From: Opitutales bacterium
GTDB lineage: Bacteria; Verrucomicrobiota; Verrucomicrobiia; Opitutales; UBA9783
DNA length: 64,000 bases
NCBI GenBank assembly: GCA_024407725.1
Contig: JAKSVZ010000003.1
Span: forward strand, 4,732-68,731
Direction: 5' to 3'
This document shows, piece after piece, positions 22,494 to 64,000 of this stretch. The notes beneath the pieces are model-generated. The model saw only the letters and a program-made list of their open reading frames with translations, searched no databases and had not been told where the DNA came from. Both the position numbers and the translations under genes were made by a program. Each line of letters begins with the position of its first letter. The stretch's first letter is position 1.

Positions 22494-23467
22494 CGTTTTT
22501 AAGTCAATTACGTCAGCAGTTTACGGATAAAAAGCCCGTTTATATCGTTACGCATGAACGAGCGGATGGGGATGGCATTGGTAGTCAAATTGCCTTAACG
22601 CTTTACCTAAATCGTTTCGGGATTGAGGCTTATTGTTTACAATCGGAGCCCTTATCGGATGCCTATGCTTCGTTTTTAACTGGGGTTCCTGTGTGCGCCT
22701 TATCGGAGCACAAAGCGGATGCGTATTGGGTTGCTGTGGATTGTGGAAATCCGACGCGGGTAGCGCCCGAATTACGTTCGTTTACCTACATAGCGGTTAT
22801 AGATCATCATCCGATAGAGGAGCCTTGGGTCGAACGTTGCTGGATCCATCCGGAACGCTCTTCTAACTGTGAACTGTTGCTGGATTTGTTCTTGGAGGAT
22901 GGGTATCGTTTGGATCATCCGGCTATCAACCATGCATTGTACATGGGGATTTTAACGGATACGGGTAGTTTTTCTCATAATAATGTGACTGCGGATACGT
23001 TTGTTTGTGCGGAACGCTTAGTGCGCGCGGGGGTACAGCCTTATCGCATTATCCAAAAATTATTTCAAAACAAGACCTTAGACCAATTTCAACTGTATCG
23101 TTTGTACTTAAAACGTTTGCGTTTGTATGAATCGGGGACGATTGCAGTAGCGCGCTTAGATGCTTCGGATTATGTCAAAACCCATACGGAGCGCATGCAC
23201 ACAGAGGGGTTTGTCAATCAGCCGTTGGGGTTAAAGCAAACCAAGATTTCGATTTTTGTTGAAACGAATCCGACCTACGTAAAGGTGAGTTTGCGTTCGA
23301 TAGATCCGGTGTTTCCGGTTAATGCAGTGGCGAAATTATGGGGAGGTTTTGGCCATGTGTGCGCAGCGGGTTTTAAGTGCTCTCCTGCGCAATTTTCCTT
23401 AAGGCGTTTGGTTCGCGCGTGTGCCCGTTGTATTCAGGATGCGCATGAGGCTGACAATAACCTATGA
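22490..23467 (+). CDS. nrnA: DHH/DHHA1 phosphoesterase (NrnA-like oligoribonuclease / pAp phosphatase)
   Basis: Motifs HERADGDGIGS, VAVDCG, IDHH and GILTDTGSF, with a C-terminal GGGH-like GGFGHVCAAG. Confidence 0.75.
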   Translation: MTFLSQLRQQFTDKKPVYIVTHERADGDGIGSQIALTLYLNRFGIEAYCLQSEPLSDAYASFLTGVPVCALSEHKADAYWVAVDCGNPTRVAPELRSFTYIAVIDHHPIEEPWVERCWIHPERSSNCELLLDLFLEDGYRLDHPAINHALYMGILTDTGSFSHNNVTADTFVCAERLVRAGVQPYRIIQKLFQNKTLDQFQLYRLYLKRLRLYESGTIAVARLDASDYVKTHTERMHTEGFVNQPLGLKQTKISIFVETNPTYVKVSLRSIDPVFPVNAVAKLWGGFGHVCAAGFKCSPAQFSLRRLVRACARCIQDAHEADNNL

Positions 23468-35150: not shown

Positions 35151-36182
35151 CTATTTGTGAGACAAAAAGCAGGTTTTTAGGCATTGATAAAAATACCTTA
35201 AGCCTTTGGTAGATGTATCGTTCAACGTAAAATCGTAATTAATGCAGGTGTTCATAACCGATGCCAATCCTGATTGTCGGCAAGCTTGACACGCCGGATG
35301 TTGGTCGCGCGCTTCGGTTAATGAACTAAGCGTATGGTCAAAGATAGACCCAACCGTTGTTCCGTTCATGCAACACAAGGAACATTTCCCCTGTACGTCC
35401 AAATACGTACGGTTGAGCATGGGGCAGCTTGTGCTGGGTTTGAAATAAGGGTCATAATAATCCATGAACAAATCATCCGCTGCTTGTTGGCGATAATCTG
35501 CTTCTAACGTTCCTTGGAAATAACGAGCTACCCTTGCGCCATCGTTGATGTAAGCATAGTAGGGATGAAACGCGATTCCAAGGGATTGCGCAAACGCTTG
35601 AGCAGGTGCGATTTCCTCTTGATTAAAACGGTACACATGAAAACGGATATCAAAAATGCCAAAAAACCCATGGCTTCGGAAATCCTGCACCAAGCGCTGA
35701 ATATTTGCCTTGATATGCTCGAAATCGAAGCGGTGGATCTTATCGTACGATGCTTGGCTAAACCCAGGCATGGAGATGTACACAACCGCGATATGGCTAG
35801 CGTCAAAGTTGTTAGGCAATTTAGGTAAGTAGTTAGCATTCGTGCTTAATCCCAACAAACACTGTTCTTGGGTGGCGATGCGAACGAGCGTTGCAAATTC
35901 AGGATGCAGGAGGGGTTCTCCCCAAGAATAAAGGTTGAGCAAGGTACCGGCGGTTAGAAAGCGCTGAGCTTTTAAATACTGGACGATGCGTGTAAATAAC
36001 TCAACCGATATAAACGGATTTTCTTTGCACCCTGAACCGTTGCGGTTATTGAATCCCGTTTGGCAATAAGCACACTGAGCGTTACAGATAGCACTGATTT
36101 CTAAAATAACGGAACGCCCCGTCTTGTGAGTTTGATAGGATAAAAAACGCTTAGCTGCTTTAAGGGCTTTTAAGCACTGCAT
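35151..36182 (-). CDS. Radical SAM enzyme with Cys-rich C-terminal (SPASM/twitch-like) domain, paralog 1 of 3
   Basis: 343 aa. CX3CX2C motif as ICNAQCAYC, then WGEPLLHP, STNAN, PGFSQASYDKIHRFDFEHIK. C-terminal Cys set: CPMLNRTYLDVQGKCSLCC ... CQAC ... LKTC. Confidence 0.8.
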   Translation of the reverse strand: MQCLKALKAAKRFLSYQTHKTGRSVILEISAICNAQCAYCQTGFNNRNGSGCKENPFISVELFTRIVQYLKAQRFLTAGTLLNLYSWGEPLLHPEFATLVRIATQEQCLLGLSTNANYLPKLPNNFDASHIAVVYISMPGFSQASYDKIHRFDFEHIKANIQRLVQDFRSHGFFGIFDIRFHVYRFNQEEIAPAQAFAQSLGIAFHPYYAYINDGARVARYFQGTLEADYRQQAADDLFMDYYDPYFKPSTSCPMLNRTYLDVQGKCSLCCMNGTTVGSIFDHTLSSLTEARDQHPACQACRQSGLASVMNTCINYDFTLNDTSTKGLRYFYQCLKTCFLSHK

Positions 36183-36209
36183 ACCGTTGGGTTTATGAAC
36201 ATTAAGGAT

Positions 36210-37268
36210 TTAAGGCTTTGCGTTTTCAGCTTTGGGCGATTGCAAACAGGTTTTGGCAAACGCTTTTAAATAGGTAAAGTTAATGCGTTTAAATTGTGCA
36301 AACCCTTGGAGTGGGAAATTTAAATCGTCCGCCAATTCCCAATTAGCCTTTCCTAACGCCATACATTCTTTACAAACCGGATGCTCTTGATGGATGCGAT
36401 CCCAGCGCTCGGGGGTCATTTCAAACACATTACCCAACAACGTGTCGTCATTACAACACATGCGGCAGTTGCCATCCACATCAACCGTTAGGTTTTTGGC
36501 AACGGGACAGAAGGTTGAAGGTTTTAAATTCTTCATATAGAACCCCATAAAAAGATCCTTAGAAACATTCATCAGATAATCATTGGGGAGCGTGCCTTTT
36601 AGATATTGCAAATGCCTTGGTCCATCGCAAATAAAGGCAAAATAAGGCCATAGATCAATGGCTAACGACCGCGCAAATGCTTTGGCAGCCTGAATCTCAT
36701 GCGTATTGAATTGGTATACGTGAAATGCAATAACAAAGCGCCCAAAACAGCCATGTTGGCGAAAGGTTTTTACAATTTGAGCAATGTTGCGCTTGATATG
36801 CTCGAAATCGAAGCGGTGGATTTTGTCGTATGATGCTTGGCTAAACCCAGGCATGGAAAAAATAGTCATGGCAATCGGGCTTGCATCAAAATCAGGTGAA
36901 ATTTTAGGCAAAACGTTAGCATTGGTGCTCAATTCAACGCAATAGCTAGCCTGTTGAGCGGCTTTAATAATGGCTGGAAAATCAGGATGCAATAACGGTT
37001 CGTGCCAATTGTGCAACGTTACTAAGGACCGCCCTTTTACAAAGGAACTTTTTTTGGCATACGCTAGAATCTGCTTAAAACGTTCAACCTCCATGAATGA
37101 GGTACCCGGATGGGTTATATGATTACGGTTTTCCCAGCCCGTTTGGCAATAGTAACATTGGGCGTTACAAACATTACTGATTTCAACCAAGATTGATTTA
37201 CGATGCCGATTTGCTTTGTAGGCAGCAAAACGGGTAAGGGCTTTCAGCGCTCGTAGAAATTGGGTCAT
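36210..37268 (-). CDS. Radical SAM enzyme with Cys-rich C-terminal (SPASM/twitch-like) domain, paralog 2 of 3
   Basis: 352 aa. VCNAQCYYC, WHEPLLHP, STNAN, and an identical PGFSQASYDKIHRFDFEHIK block. C-terminal CPVAKNLTVDVDGNCRMCC ... CKEC ... AKTC. Confidence 0.8.
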   Translation of the reverse strand: MTQFLRALKALTRFAAYKANRHRKSILVEISNVCNAQCYYCQTGWENRNHITHPGTSFMEVERFKQILAYAKKSSFVKGRSLVTLHNWHEPLLHPDFPAIIKAAQQASYCVELSTNANVLPKISPDFDASPIAMTIFSMPGFSQASYDKIHRFDFEHIKRNIAQIVKTFRQHGCFGRFVIAFHVYQFNTHEIQAAKAFARSLAIDLWPYFAFICDGPRHLQYLKGTLPNDYLMNVSKDLFMGFYMKNLKPSTFCPVAKNLTVDVDGNCRMCCNDDTLLGNVFEMTPERWDRIHQEHPVCKECMALGKANWELADDLNFPLQGFAQFKRINFTYLKAFAKTCLQSPKAENAKP

Positions 37269-37272
37269 AACG

Positions 37273-38307
37273 CTAACGTAAACATTGTTTTAATACTTCC
37301 AAAAACCATTGCCGTCGCCAATTGTAATGAGGAGGATAAAAATCACAGTAGGCATTATCGCGATTAGGCAACCCTAGCGCTAGGCATTCCTTACAAAAAT
37401 CGTAGCCTTCGTGCCATTTGCGTAATTTTTCTGGTGTTACTTCGAATACGGAGCCTAGGGAATCTGTTGTATTACAACAGGTAATAACGTTACCTTGGCT
37501 ATCGATAGCCAATCCGTTGTTATACCATGGACAGGTTGATTGTGGACCTTTGAGATTGAGCGTTAATCCCATGAATAAATCACGCGAGATGTTGGTTAAA
37601 AAATCCATGGGTAGCTCTTGTTTCAAGTATTTTGCAACATCCTTGAAGCTACATAAAGTGGCAAAATACGGTTGGCAATCGATATGAAGGGAGCGGGCAA
37701 ATTCGTAGGCTGCTGGCAGCTCATGAATATTCGATTGATAGACATGAAAAGCAATTTTGAAATGCCCAATGCATCCATGTTTGCGGAAAGTATGTACGAG
37801 GGTTGTAATATTGTGCTTAATGCGTTCAAAGTCAAATTTATGGATTTTGTCGTACGATGCTTGGCTGAATCCAGGCAAGGAAAACCAAACAATATAAATG
37901 CGGCTTGCATCAAAATCATTGGGGATTTTGGGGAGCACGTTTGCGTTGGTAGAGATATCTAGAGGACAATGAAATTGATTGGTAATGCGGATGATGGATG
38001 CAAATTCCGGATGTAACAGCGGTTCATGCCATACATAAGGTAGTAAACAGGTATGGGGTTGTAGCCACTGGGTGTCTTTCAAATGTTGAAGGATTTTTTG
38101 AAACAAATCAGTCGACATGAAGCTAGGAGCGCCTGATTGTCGGCAGCTAGGAGCACCCTTTCGATTGGCTAATCCAATGGGGCAATAATAGCACTGGGCG
38201 TTACAGACATTGCTAATATCGATTAAAATATCTTTGTTGGGAATCCGATGCTTTCGGTAATCAGCAAAGCGTCGAACGGATTGTAAGGTGCGTAGAAATT
38301 GAGTCAT
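37273..38307 (-). CDS. Radical SAM enzyme with Cys-rich C-terminal (SPASM/twitch-like) domain, paralog 3 of 3
   Basis: 344 aa. VCNAQCYYC, WHEPLLHP, STNAN, PGFSQASYDKIHKFDFERIK. C-terminal CPWYNNGLAIDSQGNVITCC ... CKEC ... LKQC. Only a 4-nt gap separates it from paralog 2. Confidence 0.8.
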   Translation of the reverse strand: MTQFLRTLQSVRRFADYRKHRIPNKDILIDISNVCNAQCYYCPIGLANRKGAPSCRQSGAPSFMSTDLFQKILQHLKDTQWLQPHTCLLPYVWHEPLLHPEFASIIRITNQFHCPLDISTNANVLPKIPNDFDASRIYIVWFSLPGFSQASYDKIHKFDFERIKHNITTLVHTFRKHGCIGHFKIAFHVYQSNIHELPAAYEFARSLHIDCQPYFATLCSFKDVAKYLKQELPMDFLTNISRDLFMGLTLNLKGPQSTCPWYNNGLAIDSQGNVITCCNTTDSLGSVFEVTPEKLRKWHEGYDFCKECLALGLPNRDNAYCDFYPPHYNWRRQWFLEVLKQCLR

Positions 38308-38403
38308 TTTGAATGAATTAACGGAAAATTATCAAAGATTAGGGTAAAGCGCGAGTTTTTTATCCTGAAGAAGTTATTGGAAGCATTTGCATGTTGAGGG
38401 GAT

Positions 38404-38694
38404 ATGGGATACAATAACTTTGTGGATCAGAATGCTATTGTTGATTTGTCGTCGAAAGCGATGAGCATTGTATTGTTGCTTTCTTTACCCTCTATTTTGT
38501 TGGCAACGTTTGTTGGGTTGGGTGTTAGTTTGCTCCAAGCGTTAACGCAGGTACAGGAACAAACGCTCAGTTTTGCGGTTCGTCTTATTTGCATTGCTTG
38601 CGTATTAGTATTGAGCGCCCATTGGATGGGAATTGAGATGGTTCGTTATTTGGAATCCATCTTTATGCTTATTAAGCAACCGTTTGGGCGATGA
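38404..38694 (+). CDS. sctS: Type III secretion export-apparatus protein SctS (YscS/FliQ family)
   Basis: 96 aa with two TM helices and the signature SLLQALTQVQEQTLSF. Confidence 0.8.
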   Translation: MGYNNFVDQNAIVDLSSKAMSIVLLLSLPSILLATFVGLGVSLLQALTQVQEQTLSFAVRLICIACVLVLSAHWMGIEMVRYLESIFMLIKQPFGR

Positions 38695-39488
38695 ACTTCG
38701 ATGCCCTAAAGCCATTGTTGGATTGGCTATTGATTTTAGGGATTAGTGGTAGCCGCATGTTCGGCTTTTGTTCGTTATCGGTGTTTTTCGCTTCGCAATA
38801 TTTATCAGGGACTGCACGGCGTGTGGTGACAGTAGCGTTTGCTATATTACTAATGCCTGCTGTGTATGTACAGGGATTAGCGGTGTTAAACGAAAGCCGT
38901 TGGTTGTTTATTTTAATTCTCTTCAAAGAAGCTTTGTTGGGAATGATTTTGGGGTGGTTGACCAATTTTTGGTTTTATGCGGCTCAAAGCGTCGGATTTA
39001 TTTTGGATACGCAACGCGGAGCATCCATGGCTAGTTTGTTTGACCCCTTATCCAATTCCCAAACCAGCCCCTTGGGTGACTTTTTGATCAAATTTACTAT
39101 GGTATTGGCGGTATGCTGTGGTGGGTTGTTTCTTATTTTGAAAGGCATTTATGTCACGTATGAATTATGCCCTATATTTACGTTCCCAACTGATTTAGGA
39201 AAGGCATGGATTCACTTCTTTAATCATGGAATGGGAACGGAATTGTTTAACCAAATTGCCTTATTGGGAGGTCCCGTTTTGTTCATTTTGTTCTTGGCGG
39301 AATTTGGATTGGGCTTGGTAACGCGCTTTGCCCCTCAGTTAAACGTGTTCTTTTTATCCATGCCGATTAAAAGTGAACTATCCATGTTCTTCTTTATCCT
39401 GTATTTATATTATTTAGCTCAATATTTTGCGGGGCGTTTTGATTGTCGTGCGGTCGTTTTACAATTTTTAAGGTTGTTGCATGAGTGA
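38691..39488 (+). CDS. sctT: Type III secretion export-apparatus protein SctT (YscT/FliR family)
   Basis: 265 aa and polytopic. It shows a family-typical pattern (R..G......P.F, ..E...G...G....) and position between sctS and sctU. There is an ATGA overlap with sctS. Confidence 0.8.
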   Translation: MNFDALKPLLDWLLILGISGSRMFGFCSLSVFFASQYLSGTARRVVTVAFAILLMPAVYVQGLAVLNESRWLFILILFKEALLGMILGWLTNFWFYAAQSVGFILDTQRGASMASLFDPLSNSQTSPLGDFLIKFTMVLAVCCGGLFLILKGIYVTYELCPIFTFPTDLGKAWIHFFNHGMGTELFNQIALLGGPVLFILFLAEFGLGLVTRFAPQLNVFFLSMPIKSELSMFFFILYLYYLAQYFAGRFDCRAVVLQFLRLLHE

Positions 39489-40554
39489 AAAAACAGAACA
39501 GCCAACCGCTAAAAAAATACGGGATGCCCGCAAAAAGGGGCAGGTTGCTAACAGTAAGGATGTCACCTCTACTGCGTTACTGATCATTATTTTTGCGTAT
39601 TTTGGGATACGTCGAGAAGCTGTTTTGCAAACGATAGGAGAATTAATAGAGCTTCCAGCTACCTTGTACAACGAACCGTTTATAGGAGCGTGTCAGCGAA
39701 TTATAGCTGATGGGCTTTCGGTGTTTGTTCAGGTGGTTTTGCCCCTCTTATTGTTGGTGGTCATTACCGGTTTGGCAGCTCATATGCTCCAGTTCGGATT
39801 GCTTTTGGCTTTTGAGTCGATTAAGCCGGATTTAAACAAACTCAATCCCATTTCTAAATTGAAGCAGATGTTTTCCATGAAAAACTTGGTGGAATTCCTA
39901 AAATCTGCGTTCAAAATTATATTTTTGGGGGTTTTGCTGTATTTTGTTATCCGCAATGCGCTCGATCCGCTATTAAAAACCCCGTTTATGAACTTGGAGG
40001 ATTTGATGGATGTTATGCCCAGCATCATGAAAACCTTCGTTTGTAATGTGATTTTTGCCTATGTCGTGGTGGCGTTTATCGATTTTGTTTTTCAGCGCAG
40101 AAATCACCTGAAGCAGCTGATGATGACCAAGGATGAGGTTAAGCGTGAATTTAAAGAACAAGAAGGGGACCCTACGATTAAGGGTAAGCGTAAGCAGATG
40201 CATCGGGAATTATTGCAAGGGGGGCCGGCGGTACGTACAAAGCGTGCTTCGGCTGTCATTGTGAATCCAACGCACTATGCGGTTGCTATTTACTATAACC
40301 GTCTGGTGACCAAATTGCCCTTAGTTTTGGCCAAAGGAATCGATTTTCAGGCGCAATTGATGAAGCAAATGGCTCGACAGTACGACATACCGATTTTGGA
40401 GGATGTTCCGTTGGCTCATGCGTTGTATGATTTGGTTGATGAGGGGGACTATATTCCGCATGAATTAATTGAGCCGATTGCGCACGTCATTCGTTGGTTG
40501 CAAGAGAACAAAAATAAGGTGGAAAAAGCACCGTATGTCCCCATGAAACGCTAA
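39481..40554 (+). CDS. sctU: Type III secretion substrate-specificity switch protein SctU (YscU/FlhB family)
   Basis: N-terminus SEKTEQPTAKKIRDARKKGQVANSKD, four TM helices, and the autocleavage motif NPTH at 40264..40275 (VIVNPTHYAVAI). Confidence 0.85.
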   Translation: MSEKTEQPTAKKIRDARKKGQVANSKDVTSTALLIIIFAYFGIRREAVLQTIGELIELPATLYNEPFIGACQRIIADGLSVFVQVVLPLLLLVVITGLAAHMLQFGLLLAFESIKPDLNKLNPISKLKQMFSMKNLVEFLKSAFKIIFLGVLLYFVIRNALDPLLKTPFMNLEDLMDVMPSIMKTFVCNVIFAYVVVAFIDFVFQRRNHLKQLMMTKDEVKREFKEQEGDPTIKGKRKQMHRELLQGGPAVRTKRASAVIVNPTHYAVAIYYNRLVTKLPLVLAKGIDFQAQLMKQMARQYDIPILEDVPLAHALYDLVDEGDYIPHELIEPIAHVIRWLQENKNKVEKAPYVPMKR

Positions 40555-40703
40555 GGTGCTTACAATGCTGTTAAAATGGCTATTGGACTGCGTTGATTGG
40601 CATCTGGACTGCATCAAAAATTATCAAAAAATTTTGCAAAAAACCACTTGCTTTATGACCCCCAAAAGTAATAATGAATTTAATCCTATAAAACCTTTTT
40701 ATT

Positions 40704-43094
40704 ATGCCTGAACTTTCTATTCGAAAACGTAATGGGTCTATCGTTCCGTTTGACTTGGAACGCATTTTTAGTGCGATCCATAGAGCTTTTTTAGCGGTAA
40801 GTCCCCAATGTGATGTCTCCTTGGTACAACGCTTAAGTGAGAAGGTGTTGTCTGAGCTAGAGCGTTATCCTGAGCATGCAATCCCATCAGTTGAAGAGGT
40901 TCAGGATTTGATAGAGCATTGCTTGATGCAAGAGCACTTTGAAAAAGTTGCTAAAGCGTTCATCTTGTATCGTGATCAACACCGCCAAATCCGCGAAGGT
41001 CAAGCGTTGGTGTTAGATATCGGGAAAACGATGGAAGATTACCTGCATCAAAGCGATTGGCGCGTGCATGAAAACAGCAGCATGCATTATTCGGTCGGTG
41101 GGCTTATTTTGCACAACGCAGGAGCGATTACTGCCAATTATTGGTTGAGCCGTATTTACGATGAAAAAATTGCTCAGGCTCATAAAAATGGGGATTTCCA
41201 TTTGCATGATTTATCCATGTTTTCTGGGTATTGTGCCGGTTGGAGCTTGCGTCAATTGTTAGAATTGGGCGTCAGTGGAGTTGAGGGTAAGGTTGGATCG
41301 AAGCCAGCCAAGCACTTTTCAACGGCTATTTGGCATATCATTAACTTTTTAGGGACGATGCAAAACGAATGGGCAGGTGCTCAGGCGCTTTCTAGTTTTG
41401 ATACCTATTTAGCTCCTTTTGTTAAACAGGATCACCTAACGTTTGAACAAGTGAAGCAGTGTATTCAAAGCTTTGTTTTTAGCATGAATACATCCTCGCG
41501 TTGGGGATCACAGCCTCCTTTTTCAAACATTACGTTAGATTGGGTATGTCCAAAAGATTTAGCGGATAAAAAGGTTATTGTTGGCGGTAAGGAATGCGAT
41601 TTCTGTTACAAGGATTGTCAGAAAGAGATTGATATGATCAACCGTGCCTTTTTAGAGGTGATGCTTGAAGGGGATGCGAATGGTCGTGGGTTTGCTTATC
41701 CTATCCCAACTTACAATATTACAAAGGATTTTAATTGGGAGGGTGAAAATGCAGACTTGTTGTTTACAATGGCTGCTAAATACGGAACCCCTTACTTCCA
41801 GAATTTTATTAATTCTGACCTAAATCCATCGGATGTACGGAGTATGTGCTGCCGTTTAAGTTTGGACAAACGAGAATTAAGGCGCCGTGGCGGTGGATTG
41901 TTCGGAGCCGATGAATTTACAGGATCCATTGGAGTGGTAACCATCAACATGCCGCGTTTGGGCTATTTAAGCACTTCTGAAGCTGAATTTTTCCAGCGCT
42001 TGGATACCTTGATGGATTTGGCAAAGGATTCATTGGAGTGTAAGCGTAAGGTGATTCAATCGTGGTTGGATCAAGGATTGTTCCCCTATACCAAGCGTTA
42101 TTTACATACATTTAATAACCATTTCTCCACGATTGGATTGGTGGGTATGCATGAATGTTGCTTGAATTTCTTGCATCAATCGATTGCAAGTGAGGCAGGA
42201 CATGCGTTTGTCCAACGGGTATTGTTGCATATGCGCGATCGGTTACGGGATTATCAGGAAAAAACTGGTAATTTGTACAATTTGGAAGCAACGCCCGCTG
42301 AAGGAACTTCGTATCGTTTAGCTAAAATCGATAAAAAGATGTTCCCAGAGATGATTCAATCAGGGAGCGAGGATCCTTATTATACCAATTCGTCTAACCT
42401 GCCTGTGGATTATACATCGAATGTATTTGAGGCGTTAGAGCATCAGGAGGAGATTCAAACAAAATATACAGGAGGTACCGTATTCCATGTGTTTTTGGGA
42501 GAAGCGTTACCGGATGCTCTGTCATGCCGTACGTTGGTGCGTAAGATTGTGAGCAATTATCGGGTGCCTTATGTGTCGATTTCACCGACGTTTTCGGTGT
42601 GCGGAACCCATGGCCGTTTTGAAGGTCAGGTGGAACATTGCCCGAAATGTGGAGCAGAAATGGAAATCTACAGCCGTATTACCGGTTATTACCGAGCGGT
42701 TAAGTTTTGGAACAAAGGTAAGAAGGAAGAATTTAAGCAGCGGTTAACGTATGACGCAGTGCATTCCCATTTGCCGTTTGGTAAGAACGATGCAACCGCA
42801 GGTATGGGTGAAGCGGAAGCTGCTGGTTGTGAAACGAAACAAGAGGAACCCATGCCGGCTGTTCAACAAGCGTTGTTTTTCCATAGCGATTCCTGTGTTA
42901 AATGCCGTGCCTTAAAGCCATTTTTAGCTGAAAAACATTTTAACGGAACGTATGTAAACACATCCGAAACTTCAGGATTGGAGCTTGCCAAACGTTATCA
43001 TATTCACAACTTGCCAGCCTTGGTGGTTCCGAACCGACCTGAAGTGGTATACGATTCAGAAGAAATTAAACGGTACGTAAGCGCTGGGTCTTAA
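40704..43094 (+). CDS. nrdD: Anaerobic ribonucleoside-triphosphate reductase (class III) with C-terminal thioredoxin-fold extension
   Basis: 796 aa with an N-terminal ATP-cone (IRKRNGSIVPFDLERI), the class III core (..CCRL.., NLEATPAEG) and the glycyl-radical motif SRITGYYRAV after CPKCG. About 112 extra residues follow, including a CVKC-containing Trx-like domain. Confidence 0.95.
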   Translation: MPELSIRKRNGSIVPFDLERIFSAIHRAFLAVSPQCDVSLVQRLSEKVLSELERYPEHAIPSVEEVQDLIEHCLMQEHFEKVAKAFILYRDQHRQIREGQALVLDIGKTMEDYLHQSDWRVHENSSMHYSVGGLILHNAGAITANYWLSRIYDEKIAQAHKNGDFHLHDLSMFSGYCAGWSLRQLLELGVSGVEGKVGSKPAKHFSTAIWHIINFLGTMQNEWAGAQALSSFDTYLAPFVKQDHLTFEQVKQCIQSFVFSMNTSSRWGSQPPFSNITLDWVCPKDLADKKVIVGGKECDFCYKDCQKEIDMINRAFLEVMLEGDANGRGFAYPIPTYNITKDFNWEGENADLLFTMAAKYGTPYFQNFINSDLNPSDVRSMCCRLSLDKRELRRRGGGLFGADEFTGSIGVVTINMPRLGYLSTSEAEFFQRLDTLMDLAKDSLECKRKVIQSWLDQGLFPYTKRYLHTFNNHFSTIGLVGMHECCLNFLHQSIASEAGHAFVQRVLLHMRDRLRDYQEKTGNLYNLEATPAEGTSYRLAKIDKKMFPEMIQSGSEDPYYTNSSNLPVDYTSNVFEALEHQEEIQTKYTGGTVFHVFLGEALPDALSCRTLVRKIVSNYRVPYVSISPTFSVCGTHGRFEGQVEHCPKCGAEMEIYSRITGYYRAVKFWNKGKKEEFKQRLTYDAVHSHLPFGKNDATAGMGEAEAAGCETKQEEPMPAVQQALFFHSDSCVKCRALKPFLAEKHFNGTYVNTSETSGLELAKRYHIHNLPALVVPNRPEVVYDSEEIKRYVSAGS

Positions 43095-43103
43095 AGGATA
43101 ACT

Positions 43104-43790
43104 ATGCCTAAGCGGTATGGTTTTTTAGCCCAATCGTTAAGCGATTATCCGGGTGAAGTATGTAGCGTAGTATTTATACCAGGGTGTAATTTTCATTGTC
43201 CCTATTGCCATAACAAAACCCTTGCGGACGATGTTCAGCGTGATGGGTTGGAATTACCTGCTATTGAAGCTTATCTGCAGAAAGCGCGTAAACTCATCAG
43301 CGGGGTGTGTATCAGCGGGGGAGAATCAACCTTGTATCCATCCGATTTAATGCTTTTGATCGAACGCTTTAAGCGCTTAGGGTTAAAAGTAAAGGTCGAT
43401 ACCAACGGAAGCCATCCGGAGGTGGTGCGGTTGATCAGCCCGTTAGTTGATTATATTGCAATGGATCTCAAAACGTCTCTAGAGCGTTATCCCCAGCTTG
43501 TTGAACCAGCTGAACAAAGCAAGTTAGTAGCTAATATAAAAGCATCGATTCAAGCACTGTTGCAGCGTGCGCCTAGTACCTATGAATTCCGTACTACGTT
43601 AGCGCGTGATTGGGTTGATGAAGCTGCCTTGCGGAACTTAGGCTCCCTAATTCATCCTTCAGCCTATTGGTATCTACAGCGTTGTTATAGTGCGCAGAAC
43701 AAACCTGAAACACCCCAAGATGGGGAAACGATTGAACGTTATTTGGCAATTGCTAAAAATTATTGTAATAACGTGTTTTTTCGCCCCTAA
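43104..43790 (+). CDS. nrdG: Anaerobic ribonucleotide reductase activating protein (radical SAM)
   Basis: CNFHCPYCHN cluster motif and ISGGESTL. It lies directly downstream of nrdD. Confidence 0.85.
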   Translation: MPKRYGFLAQSLSDYPGEVCSVVFIPGCNFHCPYCHNKTLADDVQRDGLELPAIEAYLQKARKLISGVCISGGESTLYPSDLMLLIERFKRLGLKVKVDTNGSHPEVVRLISPLVDYIAMDLKTSLERYPQLVEPAEQSKLVANIKASIQALLQRAPSTYEFRTTLARDWVDEAALRNLGSLIHPSAYWYLQRCYSAQNKPETPQDGETIERYLAIAKNYCNNVFFRP

Positions 43791-54630: not shown

Positions 54631-56163
54631 TTATTCAGCTTTTGCTTTATTGGCTGCTTCTACTTTTTTACCTAAGGATTTAACCGATAGGAGCCATAAA
54701 GTAACGATTACCAAGAAGATACCGAACAAGTAAGGTACGATTTGGAAGTAGGTTGCTTTGGTTCCCATGATAGATCCGACAACCGAGAACAGCAATACTT
54801 GGCAGAAAGCACCACCGGATTTTCCGAGACGTCCACCGACTACATCGACCACCGCTTTACCTTTAACCTTCATTTCTTCATCCAATGGGATGTAAGCCAT
54901 TTCCTTTGTTAGGTCAAACAAGGCATATTTGGTAGCTTTGGAGATGGTTACGATGATAGCTCCTAAGATAACTGCGACTGCAACTGGATTGGTTCCGATG
55001 TTGCTTAACATGCCTGCTAAATTGTCTTTAAAGATAATGAAGGAGAAGAATGATATACCTCCGACAATAAAGACGCAGGGGGTAATAGCGGCAGCGGTTG
55101 TCCAGCGGAACATACGTAATATATTACCACCAATAATCAGCATAATAATCGACATAATACCGGTCCACGTCGTTACATTACTCATGAAGGTATTGTAATC
55201 GTTTTCGTTGGTATAACGTACCTTGATTTGGCTCTTCCAAAGACCTTCGATAACGTTGACGCTAATTCCGTAGGAAATAACCAACATAGCGATTAATCCT
55301 AAGTAAGGTGAAGTAAAGATGGTCTTGAGGCTTTCGATCAAACCAGCTTTTGCTTTTTTCTTTTTGACGCCTGGTAATTCAGGTTTATCGTAGAAGCGTT
55401 TATCAGTTAATACATTTTTGTAGATCCAGCGATAAAGCACCATGGTGCAGATACCGCAAATAACGACAACGGTCATTAAGTAGTTAAGGGTGATTTGCCA
55501 AGGATCTTCTCCCGGTAAAACTTTAGAACGGATATCTGAAGACCATTTACCAACGGCTCCGGCGAATAACAGCGAAAATTGAGCCATTAATCCGAAGAAA
55601 GCGTACATACGTTTTGCTTCAGATGTTTTGGTAATTTGGTTCGCGAACTGCCAGAAGGATAGCGATAGAATGGCGCTTCCCCAAAGTTCGGCTAATACGT
55701 AGAACAAACCATAGCTCCAGACCCCTAATAAAGCGATCGGCCAGTGCAAAGACGGGAATTGTCCTTGTAGCGCTGTAATGGTGGCTACAGATGGGTGGAA
55801 GAATTCACGATGGGGATAAATGACAAAAGCAAATAACCCGAAGAAGATGATGAACGGGGATAAGGTAGCGTAGAACAGGTGTTCATTGCTAAGAATATCG
55901 CTTGCTTTAGCGTAAATCAGCATGAATAAGATGGCTGATGGGGTTACGCAAAACAACTTTAAGTACGAAAGTGCCTCAGCTCCTGTATTGGTAACTACCA
56001 AAGAATCCTTGATGTTACGAACGCAGGTGTAGTTGAACAGAATGAAGAAAAAAATGAAACCCATGGGGATTGCCTTCTTCAATTCATAAGAATGAATTGG
56101 GAAGAATATTTGCCGCAACTTCGAGAACTCGGGTTGTGGTTTTGATACATTAGGAATAGCCAT
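54631..56163 (-). CDS. tlc: ATP/ADP translocase (Tlc/Npt nucleotide transporter family)
   Basis: About 510 aa with 12 TM helices. The N-terminal F.KLRQIFFPIHSYELKK..PM.F.FF.ILFNYT..R..KD.L.VT closely parallels chlamydial/rickettsial Npt1/Tlc. I prefer the ATG at 56163 over the track's TTG at 56214. Confidence 0.9.
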   Translation of the reverse strand: MAIPNVSKPQPEFSKLRQIFFPIHSYELKKAIPMGFIFFFILFNYTCVRNIKDSLVVTNTGAEALSYLKLFCVTPSAILFMLIYAKASDILSNEHLFYATLSPFIIFFGLFAFVIYPHREFFHPSVATITALQGQFPSLHWPIALLGVWSYGLFYVLAELWGSAILSLSFWQFANQITKTSEAKRMYAFFGLMAQFSLLFAGAVGKWSSDIRSKVLPGEDPWQITLNYLMTVVVICGICTMVLYRWIYKNVLTDKRFYDKPELPGVKKKKAKAGLIESLKTIFTSPYLGLIAMLVISYGISVNVIEGLWKSQIKVRYTNENDYNTFMSNVTTWTGIMSIIMLIIGGNILRMFRWTTAAAITPCVFIVGGISFFSFIIFKDNLAGMLSNIGTNPVAVAVILGAIIVTISKATKYALFDLTKEMAYIPLDEEMKVKGKAVVDVVGGRLGKSGGAFCQVLLFSVVGSIMGTKATYFQIVPYLFGIFLVIVTLWLLSVKSLGKKVEAANKAKAE

Positions 56164-56258
56164 AACTAATCTTTTCTTTTTATATTTTAAAGGTAGCGTA
56201 AAATTTTTAAGCAAACCGTCAATTTATTTTTTGATAAATAGGATGGAAATTGAGCCTG

Positions 56259-56657
56259 TTATTGTGCTTTTAGGCGTTCAATGAAAAAGTGCGGCGGTTG
56301 GATCAACTTATGGTCTTTGTTTAAAAACACATGAACCGTAAACCCTTGAGTTAAGACGGTTGTGTCGCGCTTAATCAGGTAATTTAAGGTGAAACGTACG
56401 TGTCCCAAATCAGTAGGGGGGGTTAATTCAATCCGAAGCTCATCATCAAAAAACGCTGGGGATTTATAGGTTAAATCGGCTTGTACAACGGGTATGGAAA
56501 ATCCTTCGCGCTCCATGACCTTGTAGTCCAAATCGAGAGACCTTAGCCATTCAATACGAGCCATTTCCAGCCAAACGAAGTAGCGGCTATGATGAACAAT
56601 ACCCATGGCATCGGTTTCGGCGTAACGTACGCGTAGGGTTGTTTCAAAAGCCCTCAT
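56259..56657 (-). CDS. Acyl-CoA thioesterase, YbgC/FadM (4HBT hot-dog) family
   Basis: RVRYAETDAMGIVHHSRYFVWLEMARIEWLR matches the 4HBT catalytic-Asp region. I chose the ATG at 56657. Confidence 0.8.
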   Translation of the reverse strand: MRAFETTLRVRYAETDAMGIVHHSRYFVWLEMARIEWLRSLDLDYKVMEREGFSIPVVQADLTYKSPAFFDDELRIELTPPTDLGHVRFTLNYLIKRDTTVLTQGFTVHVFLNKDHKLIQPPHFFIERLKAQ

Positions 56658-56666
56658 CAACAACCT

Positions 56667-57083
56667 CTAATGTTTGATAGTTTTGGTTAATTTTTGCGCG
56701 ACTTGGAAACGCAAAATCTTATCTAAACGATCCAATTCTTCTTCATCCAACTGACGTTCAGTTTTTGCTTTTTCCAGCGCTTCTTTGGCCCGTTTAACCG
56801 CTTCGTCAATCGCCCCTTCATCCATGCTGTTTACATCAATAGCAGCTTCGGTTAAAACCACTAAGTCCGATCCCAGCAGTTTGAAAAAACCAGTGTCGAT
56901 AGCAATGGAGGTTGTGGATTGTGCGCTGCGATAGGTTAACGTTCCAGCCTCAATAATGCCGATAATCGGTAAGTGGCCATCTAAAATCTCAATTTCCCCC
57001 AAAGCGGTTGGCAACGTAACCGATGTCACTTGTACATCCATTACCAAACGCTCAGGAGTGATGATTTTTAGACTAAACGCCAT
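56667..57083 (-). CDS. atpC: F1 ATP synthase epsilon subunit
   Basis: 138 aa with an N-terminal beta-sandwich (LKIITPERLV...V.SV.LP...GE.EIL..H.P) and a C-terminal helical hairpin. It is the last gene of the atp operon. Confidence 0.85.
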   Translation of the reverse strand: MAFSLKIITPERLVMDVQVTSVTLPTALGEIEILDGHLPIIGIIEAGTLTYRSAQSTTSIAIDTGFFKLLGSDLVVLTEAAIDVNSMDEGAIDEAVKRAKEALEKAKTERQLDEEELDRLDKILRFQVAQKLTKTIKH

Positions 57084-57089
57084 AGGTTT

Positions 57090-59404
<2,315 letters not shown>

Positions 59405-59408
59405 ATGC

Positions 59409-60953
59409 TTAGGCCTGCTTTAAATTTTGGGCACCCCATTCTTTGAAAATACTTTCCATCTGTTGTTCTAAGGATTCCGATAAAACCTTTTCGCGCCGTA
59501 ATTGAGCCAAAAAGTCTTTCTTAAGATCCATGACATAATCGGTTAACGATTTTAGGATGGTAGGCATATCGGTTAAGGAAACGGCATCAAAAAATCCCTT
59601 TTGCATGCCCCACAAGAGCACTACCTGCAATTCTGCTGGTCGCGAAACATGGGCGCCTTGCTTGATGAGCTCCAAAATATGCTGTCCGCGCGTTAATTGT
59701 TGGCGGGTTTTTGCATCCATATCCGAACCGAACTGCGTAAAGGCTTGGAGTTCTTGATACTGTGCCATATCGAGTTTTAACTGACCCGCAACCTTCTTTA
59801 GGGCTTTAATTTGAGCAGCAGACCCTACGCGCGAAACGGAAATTCCGACCGAAATAGCTGGGCGTAAGCCTTGATTGAACAGATCGGTTTCCAGAAACAG
59901 CTGTCCGTCGGTGATGGAAATAACATTGGTTGGAATGTAAGCGGATACATCGCCTGCTTGGGTTTCAATGATAGGCAAAGCGGTTAAGGAACCACCGCCG
60001 TAATTGGAATTGAGGCGCGCTGAGCGTTCCAACAAGCGTGAATGAAGGTAGAATACATCTCCTGGGTACGCTTCACGACCCGAAGGACGCTTTAACACCA
60101 ATGAAATTTGTCGGTAGGCAGCTGCATGTTTCGATAGATCGTCGTAAACAATCAACGCATCCATGCCGTTTTGCATAAAATATTCGCCCATAGCTGTACC
60201 CGCATAAGGCGCAATGTACTGATTGGTTGCGTTTGCAGAGGCAGGAGCGGCTACCACAATCGTATATTCCAATGCACCCTGATCTTCTAAAAGCTTTAAG
60301 GTACGCGCTAAGGTTGCATTTTTCTGACCAATACACACGTAAATAGAGTAAACTGGGCGAAAATCAGGGTTGTTATCTGCAAGCCCTTGGCGGTTTAACT
60401 CTGCTTGGTGAAGAATGGCATCGAGCGCCAACGTAGTTTTACCGGTTGAGCGATCCCCAATGATCAACTCACGCTGTCCACGGCCGATAGGGAACATGGC
60501 GTCGACTGATAAAATACCCGTTTGTAAGGGTTGATCAACCGATTTACGGGTAATAATTCCAGGAGCAATTTTTTCAACGGGGTAATAGGTTTTAGTTGCT
60601 AAATCGCCTTTGCCGTCGATCGGATGACCTAACGCATCAACCACGCGCCCTAGTAATTCTTTACCTACTGGAACGGACAATAAGTGTCCGGTGGTTTTGC
60701 AGGAATCTCCTACCTTTAGTTGGCTATAATCACCAATTAAAATGGTTCGTACTTCATCTTCTTCCAAGTTCAAAGCAATGCCGTAAACGGAATTAGGAAA
60801 TTCCACCATTTCGTTGTACATGACATCGGATAGACCCGAGATCTTTGCAACTCCATCGGCTAACTCTTCAATCTTGCCGACGTTGGTGCGAATAGCCTTG
60901 GGTTGGAAAGAGCTGATCGCTGCTTTAATATCTGTATAAATGCTCGTTGTCAT
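59409..60953 (-). CDS. atpA: F1 ATP synthase alpha subunit
   Basis: Walker A GDRSTGKT, the conserved LLERSARL segment, and ..[18 protein letters not shown]. Confidence 0.97.
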
Positions 60954-61340
60954 CTAAGATAAATGTTGTTTGATGTTTTCTAATTGTCCTTTTAACGAGA
61001 CGTCCCAACGGTTATCGCCGATTTGGAAGCGAAAGCCCCCTAATAATTCAGGATTTTCTTCTGCTACCCATTGGGTGTTTTTGTCGCTGAGCGCTTGGGC
61101 TTTGATTTGTTCCAACAATTCGCTTTGTAATTGATGGGCATACTCCAAGACAGCATAGCGATTTTTGTATTCTTTCAGGAGACAAAAGCCATAGTATTCC
61201 AAAAAGCATTTAGCATCGCGCGGATAGCTATGAATGAGGAAGTCGACAACCTCTTTAATGCGTGCTTGCAAAGAGGATTCCTGCCCCTCAAAGGTGATAC
61301 GGGCAAGCGTTTGGATCAATGCTTTATGCTTGCGTTCCAT
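60954..61340 (-). CDS. atpH: F1 ATP synthase delta (OSCP) subunit, short form
   Basis: It lies between atpF and atpA. The C-terminal OSCP-like motif is LLGGFRFQIGDNRWDVSLKGQL. At 128 aa, the N-terminal domain appears reduced. Confidence 0.7.
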   Translation of the reverse strand: MERKHKALIQTLARITFEGQESSLQARIKEVVDFLIHSYPRDAKCFLEYYGFCLLKEYKNRYAVLEYAHQLQSELLEQIKAQALSDKNTQWVAEENPELLGGFRFQIGDNRWDVSLKGQLENIKQHLS

Positions 61341-61893
61341 GATCTTCCTTTTCCGCTAATAGCGTTGCTGCTTTTTGGTTAAGCTTTTGGCGCATATCAT
61401 CTGTTAGGATGGAACTCAAAAGCTTTTCGGTTGCCGCTACTGCTAGGCTGGCCGTTTCATGCCGTACCTCGGATAGTAATTGGGCACGTTCCGTAACCAA
61501 TGCGTTTTGGGATTGTTCTAACAACCGAGCCATCTTTGCTTCCGTTGCCTTCGTCTGTTCGCTCGTATACAGTTCACAATCAGCTTTGGTTTTGGCCAAT
61601 AGTGCTTGTGCTTCCTTTTGAGCTTTGGCTAACGTATTGAGGCGCTCTTGCTCCGCTGATGCCAATTGGGCTTTCATGTCCTCTGTGTACTTTAGCCCTT
61701 CGGCAATCTTGCTTTTGCGTTCCTCAACGGTTTTGAGAACAGGCTTGATAGCGAAGCGATAAAGGAGGTAGGAGACCAAACAAAAGTTGATCATCTGTGC
61801 CACCAACAATTCAGTTTGTACTCCAAACGAATTGGCAAGGCGCACAACCGCATTGTCAGGCGTTCCTGCTACGGCCAAAACTCCAAGAATCAT
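61324..61893 (-). CDS. atpF: Fo ATP synthase b subunit
   Basis: A single N-terminal TM helix (QMINFCLVSYLLYRF) followed by a long charged coiled coil. It lies between atpE and atpH. Confidence 0.8.
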   Translation of the reverse strand: MILGVLAVAGTPDNAVVRLANSFGVQTELLVAQMINFCLVSYLLYRFAIKPVLKTVEERKSKIAEGLKYTEDMKAQLASAEQERLNTLAKAQKEAQALLAKTKADCELYTSEQTKATEAKMARLLEQSQNALVTERAQLLSEVRHETASLAVAATEKLLSSILTDDMRQKLNQKAATLLAEKEDHGTQA

Positions 61894-61899
61894 AAAGTA

Positions 61900-62109
61900 T
61901 TACCCTTGGTATAAGAAGAGCGAATAAGACGCTACTGCTTGCGCGGAAGCCGTACCTGAATTGGCCTGGACCAAGATTATAGCAGAAGCGCTTGGGTTAC
62001 GACCTACCTTTTCGACTGCTTTCATTCCGATTAGGCTAACACCAATAGCTGCTGCTAAGCAACCCAATGAGGAGGTTAATCCTCGTGCGATATCTCCAAC
62101 AATATTCAT
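61900..62109 (-). CDS. atpE: Fo ATP synthase c subunit (atypical: Gln at the ion-binding carboxylate position)
   Basis: 69 aa helical hairpin with the polar loop R37-N-P, lying between atpB and atpF. Residue 57, which is 20 residues after the loop Arg, is Gln (CAA; plus strand TTG at 61939..61941). Confidence 0.8.
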   Translation of the reverse strand: MNIVGDIARGLTSSLGCLAAAIGVSLIGMKAVEKVGRNPSASAIILVQANSGTASAQAVASYSLFLYQG

Positions 62110-62155
62110 GTTTTTATCTTTTTTTAAATGTTTTGTACGACTTCAATGAACCTCA

Positions 62156-62998
62156 TTACTCATGAGCTTCTTCATGGTTGCATATGCTACCAATATAGAC
62201 TGCTACGAGTAAAGTAAAAACGAACGCTTGGACAGCGCCAATTAAAATTTCGAGGAAATAGAAGGGAATGGGCACTAGGAATTTTGCCCATGGAGCTAAA
62301 GCCATGATGTTGTTGATGAGGTTTTCGCCCCCAAACACATTACCGTACAAACGAAAGGATAAGGAAATCAAGCGGAACAGGATCGAAATACATTCGATAA
62401 ATCCAACTGCTAAGAAGATGAAGAATAAAAAGGTGTAAATACCAAAAGATAATTCTGATCGATCCGCCTTATTTCCAAAGATATGCAGGAGCGTTCCCTT
62501 AAGCCCTTCGTTTTTGATGACGAAGTATCCCCAAGCGAGCATGGAGATAGCCGCTAACGCCAAAGTTGCGTTAAGGTCGGCGTTGGATGGACGGAAAAAG
62601 TAAGTAAAATGATTTCCTTGATAGAAACCAATAGTACCCACTCCCGGCAACAAACTGCTCCAATTTTGTATTAAAATGTAGATGAAAAACCCAATTAACA
62701 AAGGAAATGCTTGCCCCATAACGCGCTTGCCAACAATGGGTTCTACCAGCGAATAAATGCTCTCAATAATGCCTTCAATCACCAATTGGCGTTTGTTGGG
62801 TACCATCTGCGGCTTTTTGATCAACAAGCGCATCAGGATAATGATGGCTGCTGAAATAATCCATGTGTACAGCATCCCATTGGTAATGGGAAAATGCCCA
62901 ATGTGATAAAGGACGTAGGGTTTGGGGCTTACTGCAACGCCTGCATACGCGTTACCGCTGAGTAAGCAAGCTAAAATGATAATTCCCCATTTGTACAT
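62156..62998 (-). CDS. atpB: Fo ATP synthase a subunit
   Basis: 280 aa and polytopic. The stator Arg motif ISLSFRLYGNVFGGE is present, as is the C-terminal helix ..QAFVFTLL...Y. Confidence 0.9.
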   Translation of the reverse strand: MYKWGIIILACLLSGNAYAGVAVSPKPYVLYHIGHFPITNGMLYTWIISAAIIILMRLLIKKPQMVPNKRQLVIEGIIESIYSLVEPIVGKRVMGQAFPLLIGFFIYILIQNWSSLLPGVGTIGFYQGNHFTYFFRPSNADLNATLALAAISMLAWGYFVIKNEGLKGTLLHIFGNKADRSELSFGIYTFLFFIFLAVGFIECISILFRLISLSFRLYGNVFGGENLINNIMALAPWAKFLVPIPFYFLEILIGAVQAFVFTLLVAVYIGSICNHEEAHE

Positions 62999-63032
62999 GT
63001 CCGCTTTATCTTATCGTTTTTTTAAACGTTTT

Positions 63033-63920
63033 TCAATAGGTAATTTTTGATGCCTTAATGAACCGTTTTTTAGCCCAAAGTGTCCACAGGTAGATCACCA
63101 GTAAAACGCATAGGACGAACCAAGAATGGGTTAAGCTTCCGTTGCCCCACCAAGAGGGTGGTTGGGGGAAAAAATAATACCATTGCCGCGATAATAAAAG
63201 GACAAACACAAGACCTTGGTGAAATCCGATGCTTGCCCATAGCGTTTGGCATTGGGTGCGTAAATTGATTAATAGGCCGCTCAAAAGGAATAGGCATAGG
63301 AAATAAGTCAGTTGAAAGCCATGCACAATGTTAACTAGGGAACTTTTGGCGCACAAAAAACTTTGAATCCACAAGGATGGATGTTCGCTGTCGGTGCACA
63401 TGGAAAAGTGCATCAAGGCAAACAGGAGCGATAAGAATAGGGTGCTTAAGCCTACGGAATAGCGTGTGCGTAACGCGTCCCATAAGAATCCACGGAACAT
63501 GATTTCTTCCAAGCATACTAAGAAGAAACTGCCGACAAAAGCCCCACCGAAGCGCAAATGTCCGTCGGGGTAATGGAATACAGGGGGAATAACGGCCATG
63601 ATGATGGCAAATAGCACGCACCAAAGCAAGCAGCCGGCAACAAAGGTGCTTAGGTAGTATTTAAAGGTGCTGCGTAAGTGCCAATTGCCCCAAAAATGGT
63701 TGGATTTGGATAGCCAGAGAACCGTTGCAAAGAAGCTGACCATGCGTATGCGATCGAGGTATTGCGATAAAGGTTTTGTGGCTAAATGATGGAGGGCTTT
63801 TAGCGAACACGCATGATCGATGAGCTGTACGCATTGATGAAGGAGGGGGGTTAAGATGGCTGCTCCCAAAAGGACGCACAGATATAATCCGATAAGCCAA
63901 ATTAAGCTGAATTTTCTCAT
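63033..63920 (-). CDS. CPBP family intramembrane glutamic endopeptidase (CAAX protease/Abi-like)
   Basis: 295 aa and polytopic, with motif 1 EEIMFRG and motif 2 FALMHF. Confidence 0.7.
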   Translation of the reverse strand: MRKFSLIWLIGLYLCVLLGAAILTPLLHQCVQLIDHACSLKALHHLATKPLSQYLDRIRMVSFFATVLWLSKSNHFWGNWHLRSTFKYYLSTFVAGCLLWCVLFAIIMAVIPPVFHYPDGHLRFGGAFVGSFFLVCLEEIMFRGFLWDALRTRYSVGLSTLFLSLLFALMHFSMCTDSEHPSLWIQSFLCAKSSLVNIVHGFQLTYFLCLFLLSGLLINLRTQCQTLWASIGFHQGLVFVLLLSRQWYYFFPQPPSWWGNGSLTHSWFVLCVLLVIYLWTLWAKKRFIKASKITY

Positions 63921-63927
63921 GAAAACA

Positions 63928-64000
63928 TGGTGGGAAGTACTGGATTCGAACCAGTGACCCCTAGCGTGTCATGCTAGTGCTCTAACCAACTGAGCTAACT
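63928..64000 (-). tRNA. tRNA-Val (anticodon GAC), 5' four nucleotides beyond the window end
   Basis: The reverse complement reads ..AGT-TA-GCTC-AGTTGGTTA-GAGC-A-CTAGC-AT-GAC-AC-GCTAG-GGGTC-ACTGG-TTCGAAT-CCAGT-ACTTCCC-A-CCA. Confidence 0.8.

Follow-up and report, generated by a model that had tools for sequence, protein, structure and literature searches.

The atpE gene considered here belongs to a horse-gut Opitutales bacterium and lies within a stretch of 64,000 nucleotides (hereafter the window), and its deposited form encodes a c subunit of the F-type ATP synthase with a Gln in place of the ion-binding Glu. This residue falls in an 82-nt tract of anomalous bases, which is very probably not the prevailing sequence of the organism, whose atpE would instead be an ordinary, canonical gene. 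A previous sequence-only reading of the window had noted the Gln at position 57 and the polar character of the second helix, and both observations are correct for the deposited bases, but most likely they correspond to no real feature of the bacterium. The true c subunit would be MNIVGDIARGLTSSLGCLAAAIGVSLIGMKAVEMVGRNPSASGKILVQAILGMALAEAVAFYSLFLYQG, with Glu57.

As deposited, atpE (61900..62109, minus strand) is an open reading frame of 69 amino acids, in frame and with neither stops nor frameshifts, flanked by atpB (62156..62998) on one side and by atpF (61324..61893) on the other. Its loop, R37-N38-P39, follows the R-(Q/N)-P pattern of the polar loop and, together with the position in the operon, bears out the identification of this small gene as atpE. 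When a canonical sister protein was compared with solved c subunits by phmmer, its E57 aligned with the ion-binding Glu of 9itj and of yeast subunit 9, which confirms that residue 57 is the carboxylate site. At this codon (61939..61941, minus strand) the window carries CAA (Gln; TTG on the plus strand) where the relatives carry GAA (Glu), leaving Gln57 at the place, 20 residues after the loop Arg, where the helix-2 carboxylate is expected. D6 and E33 are the sole acidic residues of the deposited protein and helix 2 has no Asp or Glu at all, exactly as had been described, and a search by eye for another frame or register of atpE that would restore an acidic residue gave none. Two profile models place the deposited protein below their thresholds: Pfam ATP-synt_C (PF00137) scores 21.2 bits against a cutoff of 24 and aligns only residues 9-44 (helix 1 and the loop), and TIGR01260 scores 20.8 bits against a cutoff of 43.95. 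The canonical sister protein P0005 reaches 45.0 bits with the same Pfam model over residues 9-64. Helix 2 is indeed unusually polar, since by hydropathy calculation alone its best 19-mer has a KD value of 0.95 in the deposited protein versus 1.74 in the canonical one; helix 1 has a normal value of 1.78 by the same calculation. No second c gene was found in the 64-kb window by tblastn.

The change at codon 57 is not isolated, and the anomaly is the whole tract in which it lies (61928..62009, minus strand, codons 34-61), where 13 base changes private to this contig produce nine amino acid replacements (M34K, G43A, K44I, I50N, L51S, M53T, L55S, E57Q and F61S) plus three silent changes. Nearly all nine replacements exchange a hydrophobic residue for a polar one. 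The changed positions on the gene strand are 101, 128, 131, 141, 147, 149, 152, 158, 164, 165, 168, 169 and 182, and their density climbs toward the centre of the tract. If a private change in atpE is defined as a departure from the unanimous state of five relatives, the gene contains 14 of them, all within codons 34-61, and none in codons 1-33 or 62-69; the fourteenth, beyond the 13 of the tract, is the silent AAC of N38. In an alignment of 9.4 kb this is the densest cluster of private changes, with 12 per 60-nt sliding window versus a mean of 1.5, and the corresponding Poisson tail, by our own arithmetic, is ~1e-7 per window, so that the anomaly is far beyond chance. The suggestion that Gln57 might derive from a single-base error therefore holds in one part, as a sequence error is the favoured explanation, but not in the other, because what has to be explained is an 82-nt tract of 13 bases and not one G/C substitution.

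The mutation spectrum of the tract is also unlike that of the genuine substitutions of the lineage, for which 224 private substitutions served as the comparison set. Transitions and transversions occur at a ratio of 6:7 in the tract versus 167:57 in the genuine substitutions (p=0.047), G<->C changes account for 3/13 versus 7/224 (p=0.012), AT>GC and GC>AT changes stand at 7:0 versus 111:95 (p=0.018), and changes to C on the gene strand make up 9/13 versus 65/224 (p=0.004). Nine of the 13 changes fall on a T of the gene strand (that is, on plus-strand adenines), and the other four elsewhere. The conversion of I, L, M and F into N, S and T follows from the fact that the codons of hydrophobic residues have a T at the second position, and T is the base being hit, and the pattern takes no account of what the protein does. 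The sequence around each changed base was inspected by hand for a methylation motif or a phasing signature, and showed neither a common motif nor a neighbour-base pattern. Secondary structure leading to poor sequencing was considered as well and rejected, as the DNA fold z-score (-0.61) is unremarkable.

The preference for plus-strand adenines, together with the break of the assembly graph at the tract, recalls a diversity-generating retroelement (DGR) or a similar hypermutation system, which would have diversified helix 2. The four changes off adenines speak against it, as does a search of the 64-kb window (blastn-short and tblastn) that gave neither a template repeat nor another copy of the tract. 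Moreover, the gene order is the same in the relatives, with no reverse transcriptase called within ~8 kb, and lineages with 10% DNA divergence have the same helix 2, so a DGR is an extremely improbable source of these changes.

On the other hand, the relatives of this gene offer a very uniform picture of what the c subunit of the lineage looks like. The exact deposited protein is known from one assembly only, GCA_024500545.1 (annotated as 'Opitutales bacterium'), and a protein word search for the variant gave no occurrence outside it. The sister clusters P0002 and P0003 share an identical canonical helix 2, RNPSASGKILVQAILGMALAEAVAFYSLFLYQG, with a GAA-encoded Glu57; their contigs are syntenic with the window and show 93.8% (P0002) and 89.8% (P0003) nucleotide identity to it over 9.4 kb. 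These sister proteins occur on dozens of contigs, with 56 blocks of the contig index listing P0002. A canonical atpE with Glu57 is also present in the GTDB species representative UBA3869 and in the JGI contig AUXO018567875, and the order of the genes around the atp operon is identical across the relatives. Two JGI contigs encoding P0005 (L015 and L016) were tried as representatives of the strain of the window and discarded, as they belong to the L001-type lineage. HMMER, run exhaustively against 1.84 billion cluster representatives, collected 98 relatives, in which the aligned sequences judged to be intact have Glu at position 57; the sequences with another residue there show scrambled C-terminal parts, which by eye look like frameshifts or truncations. 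The R, N and P of the loop are near-invariant across the 98 relatives, and the residues I50, L51, F/L55, E57 and F/I61, conserved family-wide, are all replaced in the deposited atpE. An exact scan of JGI metagenomes with a variant-specific 27-mer gave no match, and degenerate patterns designed to catch intermediates retrieved only canonical sequences from GTDB genomes and JGI metagenomes. Whether Gln had become fixed in the lineage was one of the checks that the sequence-only reading had proposed for itself, and the GAA found in the sister genomes is the very codon it had named as evidence to the contrary.

These data also bear on the idea that the polar helix 2 forms an unconventional ion or water site in a c-ring that has acquired a new function and dispenses with the carboxylate. 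The one point in its favour is that Ser, Thr, Asn and Gln side chains could, in principle, act as ion ligands. By calculation only, the hydropathy of the helix is below the usual threshold for a membrane helix, and the polar form is found in no intact relative. The five conserved positions would have been lost all at once, no second example exists in the protein word search or among the 1.84 billion representatives, the a subunit is unchanged and the tract itself is unsupported. Such a site, one of the possibilities raised from the sequence, is scarcely credible.

The most informative evidence comes from an independent assembly of what appears to be the same material. Logan contigs of the run SRR17543914 show 10 mismatches to the window over 16.6 kb. 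Two of these contigs reach into the anomaly from either side: L014 (window 64000..61962) covers the upstream part including atpB, and L013/L017 (window 61931..56667) covers atpF through atpC. Two others, L018 (window 55063..56686) and L019 (window 35921..43606), come from the same run. Under L013/L014, 119 of 125 window-private substitutions are reproduced, which identifies the Logan contigs as the same strain as the window. In agreement with this, the exact a, b, epsilon and thioesterase proteins of the window are otherwise found only on Logan contigs of SRR17543914, the atpB product being encoded on L014. The six unreproduced substitutions (62009, 61982, 61979, 61969, 61963 and 61928) are all in the atpE tract, and at these sites the Logan bases are ancestral, giving M34, G43, K44, GTT, GCT and F61. 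The silent marker at N38 (AAC and not AAT; 61996, minus strand), which is common to the window and L014, is a genuine strain marker and provides a positive control for the reproduction of real private changes by Logan. Thus, the tract fails to reappear when the same strain is assembled independently. A c-ring lacking its carboxylate at the level of the organism, as first proposed, finds no support, given the GAA of the sister genomes and the canonical Logan bases at six of the 12 companion changes.

Both Logan contigs break inside atpE, L014 at 61962 and L013/L017 at 61931, and the 30 nt left between them (61932..61961, minus strand) contain seven of the 13 odd bases, one of them in codon 57. 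The contradiction of Gln57 is accordingly one of association and not a direct one, and the seven uncovered sites, codon 57 among them, would be canonical in most reads. Logan drops the 31-mers seen once per run and then applies a SPAdes-like graph simplification (PMC12424806). L014 passes five canonical sites without branching, which under this filter means that the variant path is absent from the raw reads or far weaker than the canonical one. The canonical path is also under two-fold k-mer support for about 60 k-mers. The ends of Logan contigs are not generally error-laden, as the junction at 56667/56686 has a 20-nt overlap with 0 mismatches.

Elsewhere in the operon, the MAG and the Logan contig differ at four silent third positions within 31 nt of atpD (codons 215, 216, 222 and 225; 57831..57861, minus strand). 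These differences, unlike the atpE tract, look like real microdiversity. At 57831 the MAG and the Logan contig each differ from all relatives, and the patch of four sites looks like a short recombination tract or a haplotype co-existing in the sample ECA202. In another part of the window, a LysM-repeat protein (11551..12627, plus strand) and a DHH phosphoesterase (22490..23467, plus strand) are two of three looked-up MAG proteins with no exact Logan counterpart, which could be due to ordinary breaks in 1-kb genes or to further disagreement between the MAG and the reads.

Apart from atpE, the enzyme is intact, as had been stated from the sequence. The a subunit, encoded by atpB (62156..62998, minus strand), matches Pfam ATP-synt_A with 130.5 bits and keeps its stator Arg in LSFRLYGNVFGGE; atpF, atpH, atpA, atpG, atpD and atpC (56667..61893, minus strand) are likewise intact, each with a Pfam match to its family, and conserve the catalytic motifs GDRSTGKT (alpha) and GGAGVGKT (beta). 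From atpF to atpC the region is equal to Logan L017, except for the four silent sites in atpD. Some features of the operon deserve a separate comment. The product of atpB has 280 aa, with an N-terminal extension of ~40 residues which opens with a hydrophobic, signal-peptide-like segment, MYKWGIIILACLLSGNAYAG, and the Pfam match starts from residue 42. The delta subunit encoded by atpH (60954..61340, minus strand) has only 128 aa, the same length as in all relatives, and its gene shows a 17-nt overlap with atpF; only residues 63-127 of delta align with the OSCP profile, in its C-terminal third (105-172 of 172), and the N-terminal domain, which normally binds alpha, seems to be shortened or diverged. 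Directly upstream of atpB, a gene for an Rce1-like CAAX/CPBP intramembrane protease of 295 aa (63033..63920, minus strand) occupies the slot that atpI has in many bacteria, and it is kept there in all sister contigs.

The dN/dS values of the window branch, obtained from parsimony counts with L007 as outgroup, set atpE apart from its partners: 0.68 for atpE versus 0.05 for a, 0.00 for b, 0.03 for delta, 0.02 for alpha, 0.02 for gamma, 0.01 for beta and 0.00 for epsilon, so that the comparison of atpE with the other atp genes suggested in the sequence-only reading does yield a difference. Relaxed selection across atpE and its partner genes was not seen, as codons 1-33 are clean and the partners remain at 0.00-0.05. 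A relaxation of the whole gene would have hit helix 1 too, which is untouched, and a long-dead c-ring with nine replacements accumulated by drift would have freed the a subunit from selection, which at a dN/dS of 0.05 has not been freed. Whatever its cause, the origin of the tract is local and effectively instantaneous.

A small thioesterase gene separates the atp operon from a downstream gene for a TLC-family ATP/ADP (nucleotide) translocase (54631..56214, minus strand; Pfam TLC 615.6 bits), which has a dN/dS of 0.04 on the window branch, indicative of purifying selection, and the same position in all sister contigs. A look-up of its 510-aa product gave no record. This neighbour makes it conceivable that the deposited atpE is true and prevailing, and that the Fo is decaying or uncoupled in a cell that imports its ATP through the adjoining translocase, a scenario to which the lack of a respiratory chain in the UBA9783 family and the intact, in-frame reading frame of atpE would also conform. 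But the independent assembly of the same strain is canonical at six of 13 sites, all changes are confined to 82 nt with none in helix 1, unlike the pattern of a whole-gene relaxation, and relatives with the same TLC gene keep Glu57. Furthermore, the a subunit, whose sole job is against the carboxylate of the c-ring, remains at 0.05 and the F1 and stalk genes at 0.03 or less. The notion of a decaying or uncoupled Fo is thus contradicted by the strong purifying selection on the seven partner subunits (0.00-0.05), and a prevailing loss of the carboxylate is very unlikely.

A nucleotide importer in a respiration-less genome of ~1 Mb suggests dependence on a host or partner cell. The 2025 paper on UBA9783, which sees these bacteria as possible free-living scavengers, does not contain the word 'translocase'. 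Genes of the Bac_export_3, Bac_export_1 and Bac_export_2 families adjoin nrdD at ~38400..40554 (plus strand; L019 3053..5203) and correspond to a flagellar or type III secretion export gate. Flagellar machinery is missing according to the UBA9783 paper, and these export-gate genes may therefore be part of a type III secretion system. Taken with the TLC gene, they would resemble a host-associated toolkit.

With regard to the canonical c-ring, the residue after E57 is A58, and V24 occupies the position where Na+-type rings have a Gln, so the Na+ motif is presumably absent. With neither a Ser or Thr following E57 nor the helix-1 Gln, the ring would be a normal one of the H+ type. UBA9783 genomes contain no respiratory chain, and their only primary pump is a membrane pyrophosphatase (PMC12306168). 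Because of this lack of a respiratory chain, the enzyme probably hydrolyses ATP to energise the membrane, and a canonical c-ring in such a respiration-less fermenter, as predicted from the genomes, would most probably run on ATP hydrolysis.

The way in which the MAG was obtained may explain how an anomalous tract could enter the deposited sequence. The contig is part of MAG372, a horse-gut Opitutales bin with a reduced genome (GTDB f__UBA9783, g__UBA3869; GCA_024500545.1). The run SRR17543914 comes from the study of horse faecal metagenomes by Mach et al. 2022 (PMC9529974), based on HiSeq3000 2x150 reads and the ATLAS pipeline. The reads underwent Q10 trimming, error correction and merging, and metaSPAdes 3.13.1 then assembled each sample with the minimum average coverage set to 1 (PMC9529974). 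MAG372 is the sole Opitutales bin of that study (771,894 bp in 24 contigs, 75.5% complete), with an abundance of 49,834 in sample ECA202 and of at most 610 in each of the other ten samples (PMC9529974). Sequence identity and this single-sample abundance point to SRR17543914 as the origin of the MAG. If the abundance counts are reads, its depth is ~9.7x. A simulation with 150-nt reads at 9-10x, retaining 31-mers present at least twice, gave a mean contig of 3-5 kb, which matches the 1.6-7.7 kb of the Logan contigs. At 10x and uniform coverage, a simulated canonical gap of 60 k-mers was rare (7.5 per Mb), which hints that the depth at the tract is either split or unusually low.

The once-seen rule of Logan and the depth of ~10x would leave the variant bases on one or very few low-quality reads. 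The tract most likely represents a poorly supported path in the metaSPAdes contig, at a point where too few reads were available to override it. The bridge over a local coverage trough would be one read of poor quality, or a merged pair with overlapping low-quality 3' ends, and the canonical dead-end tips would be clipped while the variant path was kept. The rise in the density of changes toward the centre would be expected from the overlapping low-quality 3' ends of a merged pair. If the tract is not the prevailing sequence, an error-laden read or read pair is its most likely source, the exact assembler mechanism being a deduction of ours. Some points count against an artefact. One is that only an unusually bad read would accumulate 13 substitution errors within 82 nt and still match cleanly on either side. 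Another concerns the bias toward G on the plus strand (9/13 changes): HiSeq3000 has four-colour chemistry, and the 'dark G' artefact belongs to two-colour instruments. A 'dark G' origin was consequently rejected for this run and cannot explain the bias.

Since there is real microdiversity in the sample, as illustrated by the four silent sites of atpD, the tract could also be a genuine minor haplotype, namely a real but rare atpE allele carried by a sub-population of ECA202 or by single molecules, which would have arisen in one clustered-mutation or gene-conversion event and would encode a dead, possibly dominant-negative c subunit. In atpD, too, the MAG picked a second haplotype, the strand bias of the tract (9/13 at gene-strand T) is like that of single-strand damage clusters, and a depth divided between two alleles explains the long k-mer gap better than a uniform 10x does. 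The other atp genes show no decay yet, which would fit a very recent single event. Nevertheless, the variant path is lost under the at-least-two-copies filter and the graph cleaning of Logan, whereas the canonical flanks survive, and there is no trace of the allele in any other assembly searched. A gene conversion would have required a donor, and the changes do not have the spectrum expected of a tract imported from a diverged, functional homologue, none of the 1.84 billion representatives has such a helix, and the window contains no second atpE copy. Overall, a rare allele of this kind is unlikely, and we likewise doubt the fuller version of it, in which the product of a clustered, strand-biased event in the outer helix, probably dominant-negative, would be tolerated in a sub-population by means of ATP import through the TLC translocase.

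Were the deposited sequence true, a single-hairpin c subunit with no carboxylate would challenge the universal mechanism of rotary ion translocation or, alternatively, it would show an energy parasite in the course of losing its ATP synthase. Given that the tract is in all probability a poorly supported assembly path, the lesson is a more practical one: calls of an 'essential site lost' in MAGs of ~10x need confirmation at the level of the reads or by a second assembly, for which the comparison of a MAG with the Logan contigs of the same run offers a quick route.

Among known systems, the gene has its place with the canonical bacterial F-type c subunits (PF00137; 9itj, yeast subunit 9 in 2wpd and Ilyobacter tartaricus 1yce), with which the deposited form shares the slot in the operon, helix 1 and the R-N-P loop, and the sister sequences align with those of canonical F-type rings over their full length, with Glu57 opposite the ion-binding Glu. 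In contrast to them, the deposited helix 2 carries nine replacements, E57Q among them, and falls below the Pfam threshold, a difference which, as the evidence indicates, is not biological. The E. coli mutants cD61N and cD61G of Fillingame and Hoppe are reportedly loss-of-function mutants, and they resemble the deposited protein in that the carboxylate of a single-hairpin c subunit gives way to an amide or another non-acidic residue. These are single-site laboratory mutants, whereas the deposited atpE has eight further changes in helix 2. In terms of function they would be the nearest analogue of the deposited protein, and if the allele were real, a loss of coupled ion translocation would be expected.

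To our knowledge, natural hairpins that lack the carboxylate exist only inside duplicated V-type or hybrid c subunits which keep another site. Duplicated subunits of this type, with one ion site lost, provide examples of such hairpins in working rings (PMC9171764). In Acetobacterium woodii, c1 (4bem chain J), which gives a weak sequence match, two hairpins retain one carboxylate and are mixed with normal c subunits. The deposited protein, in contrast, consists of one 69-aa hairpin, with no second c gene in the window. The tract also resembles the consensus errors of low-coverage MAGs that stem from single-read de Bruijn paths. The density of 13 changes in 82 nt is unusual for Illumina data and departs from the typical error of this class, and the mechanism proposed for it here is our own deduction. 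In any case, the two share a depth of ~10x and a metaSPAdes minimum coverage of 1, and an assembly that needs 31-mers seen at least twice disagrees with the MAG exactly at the tract.
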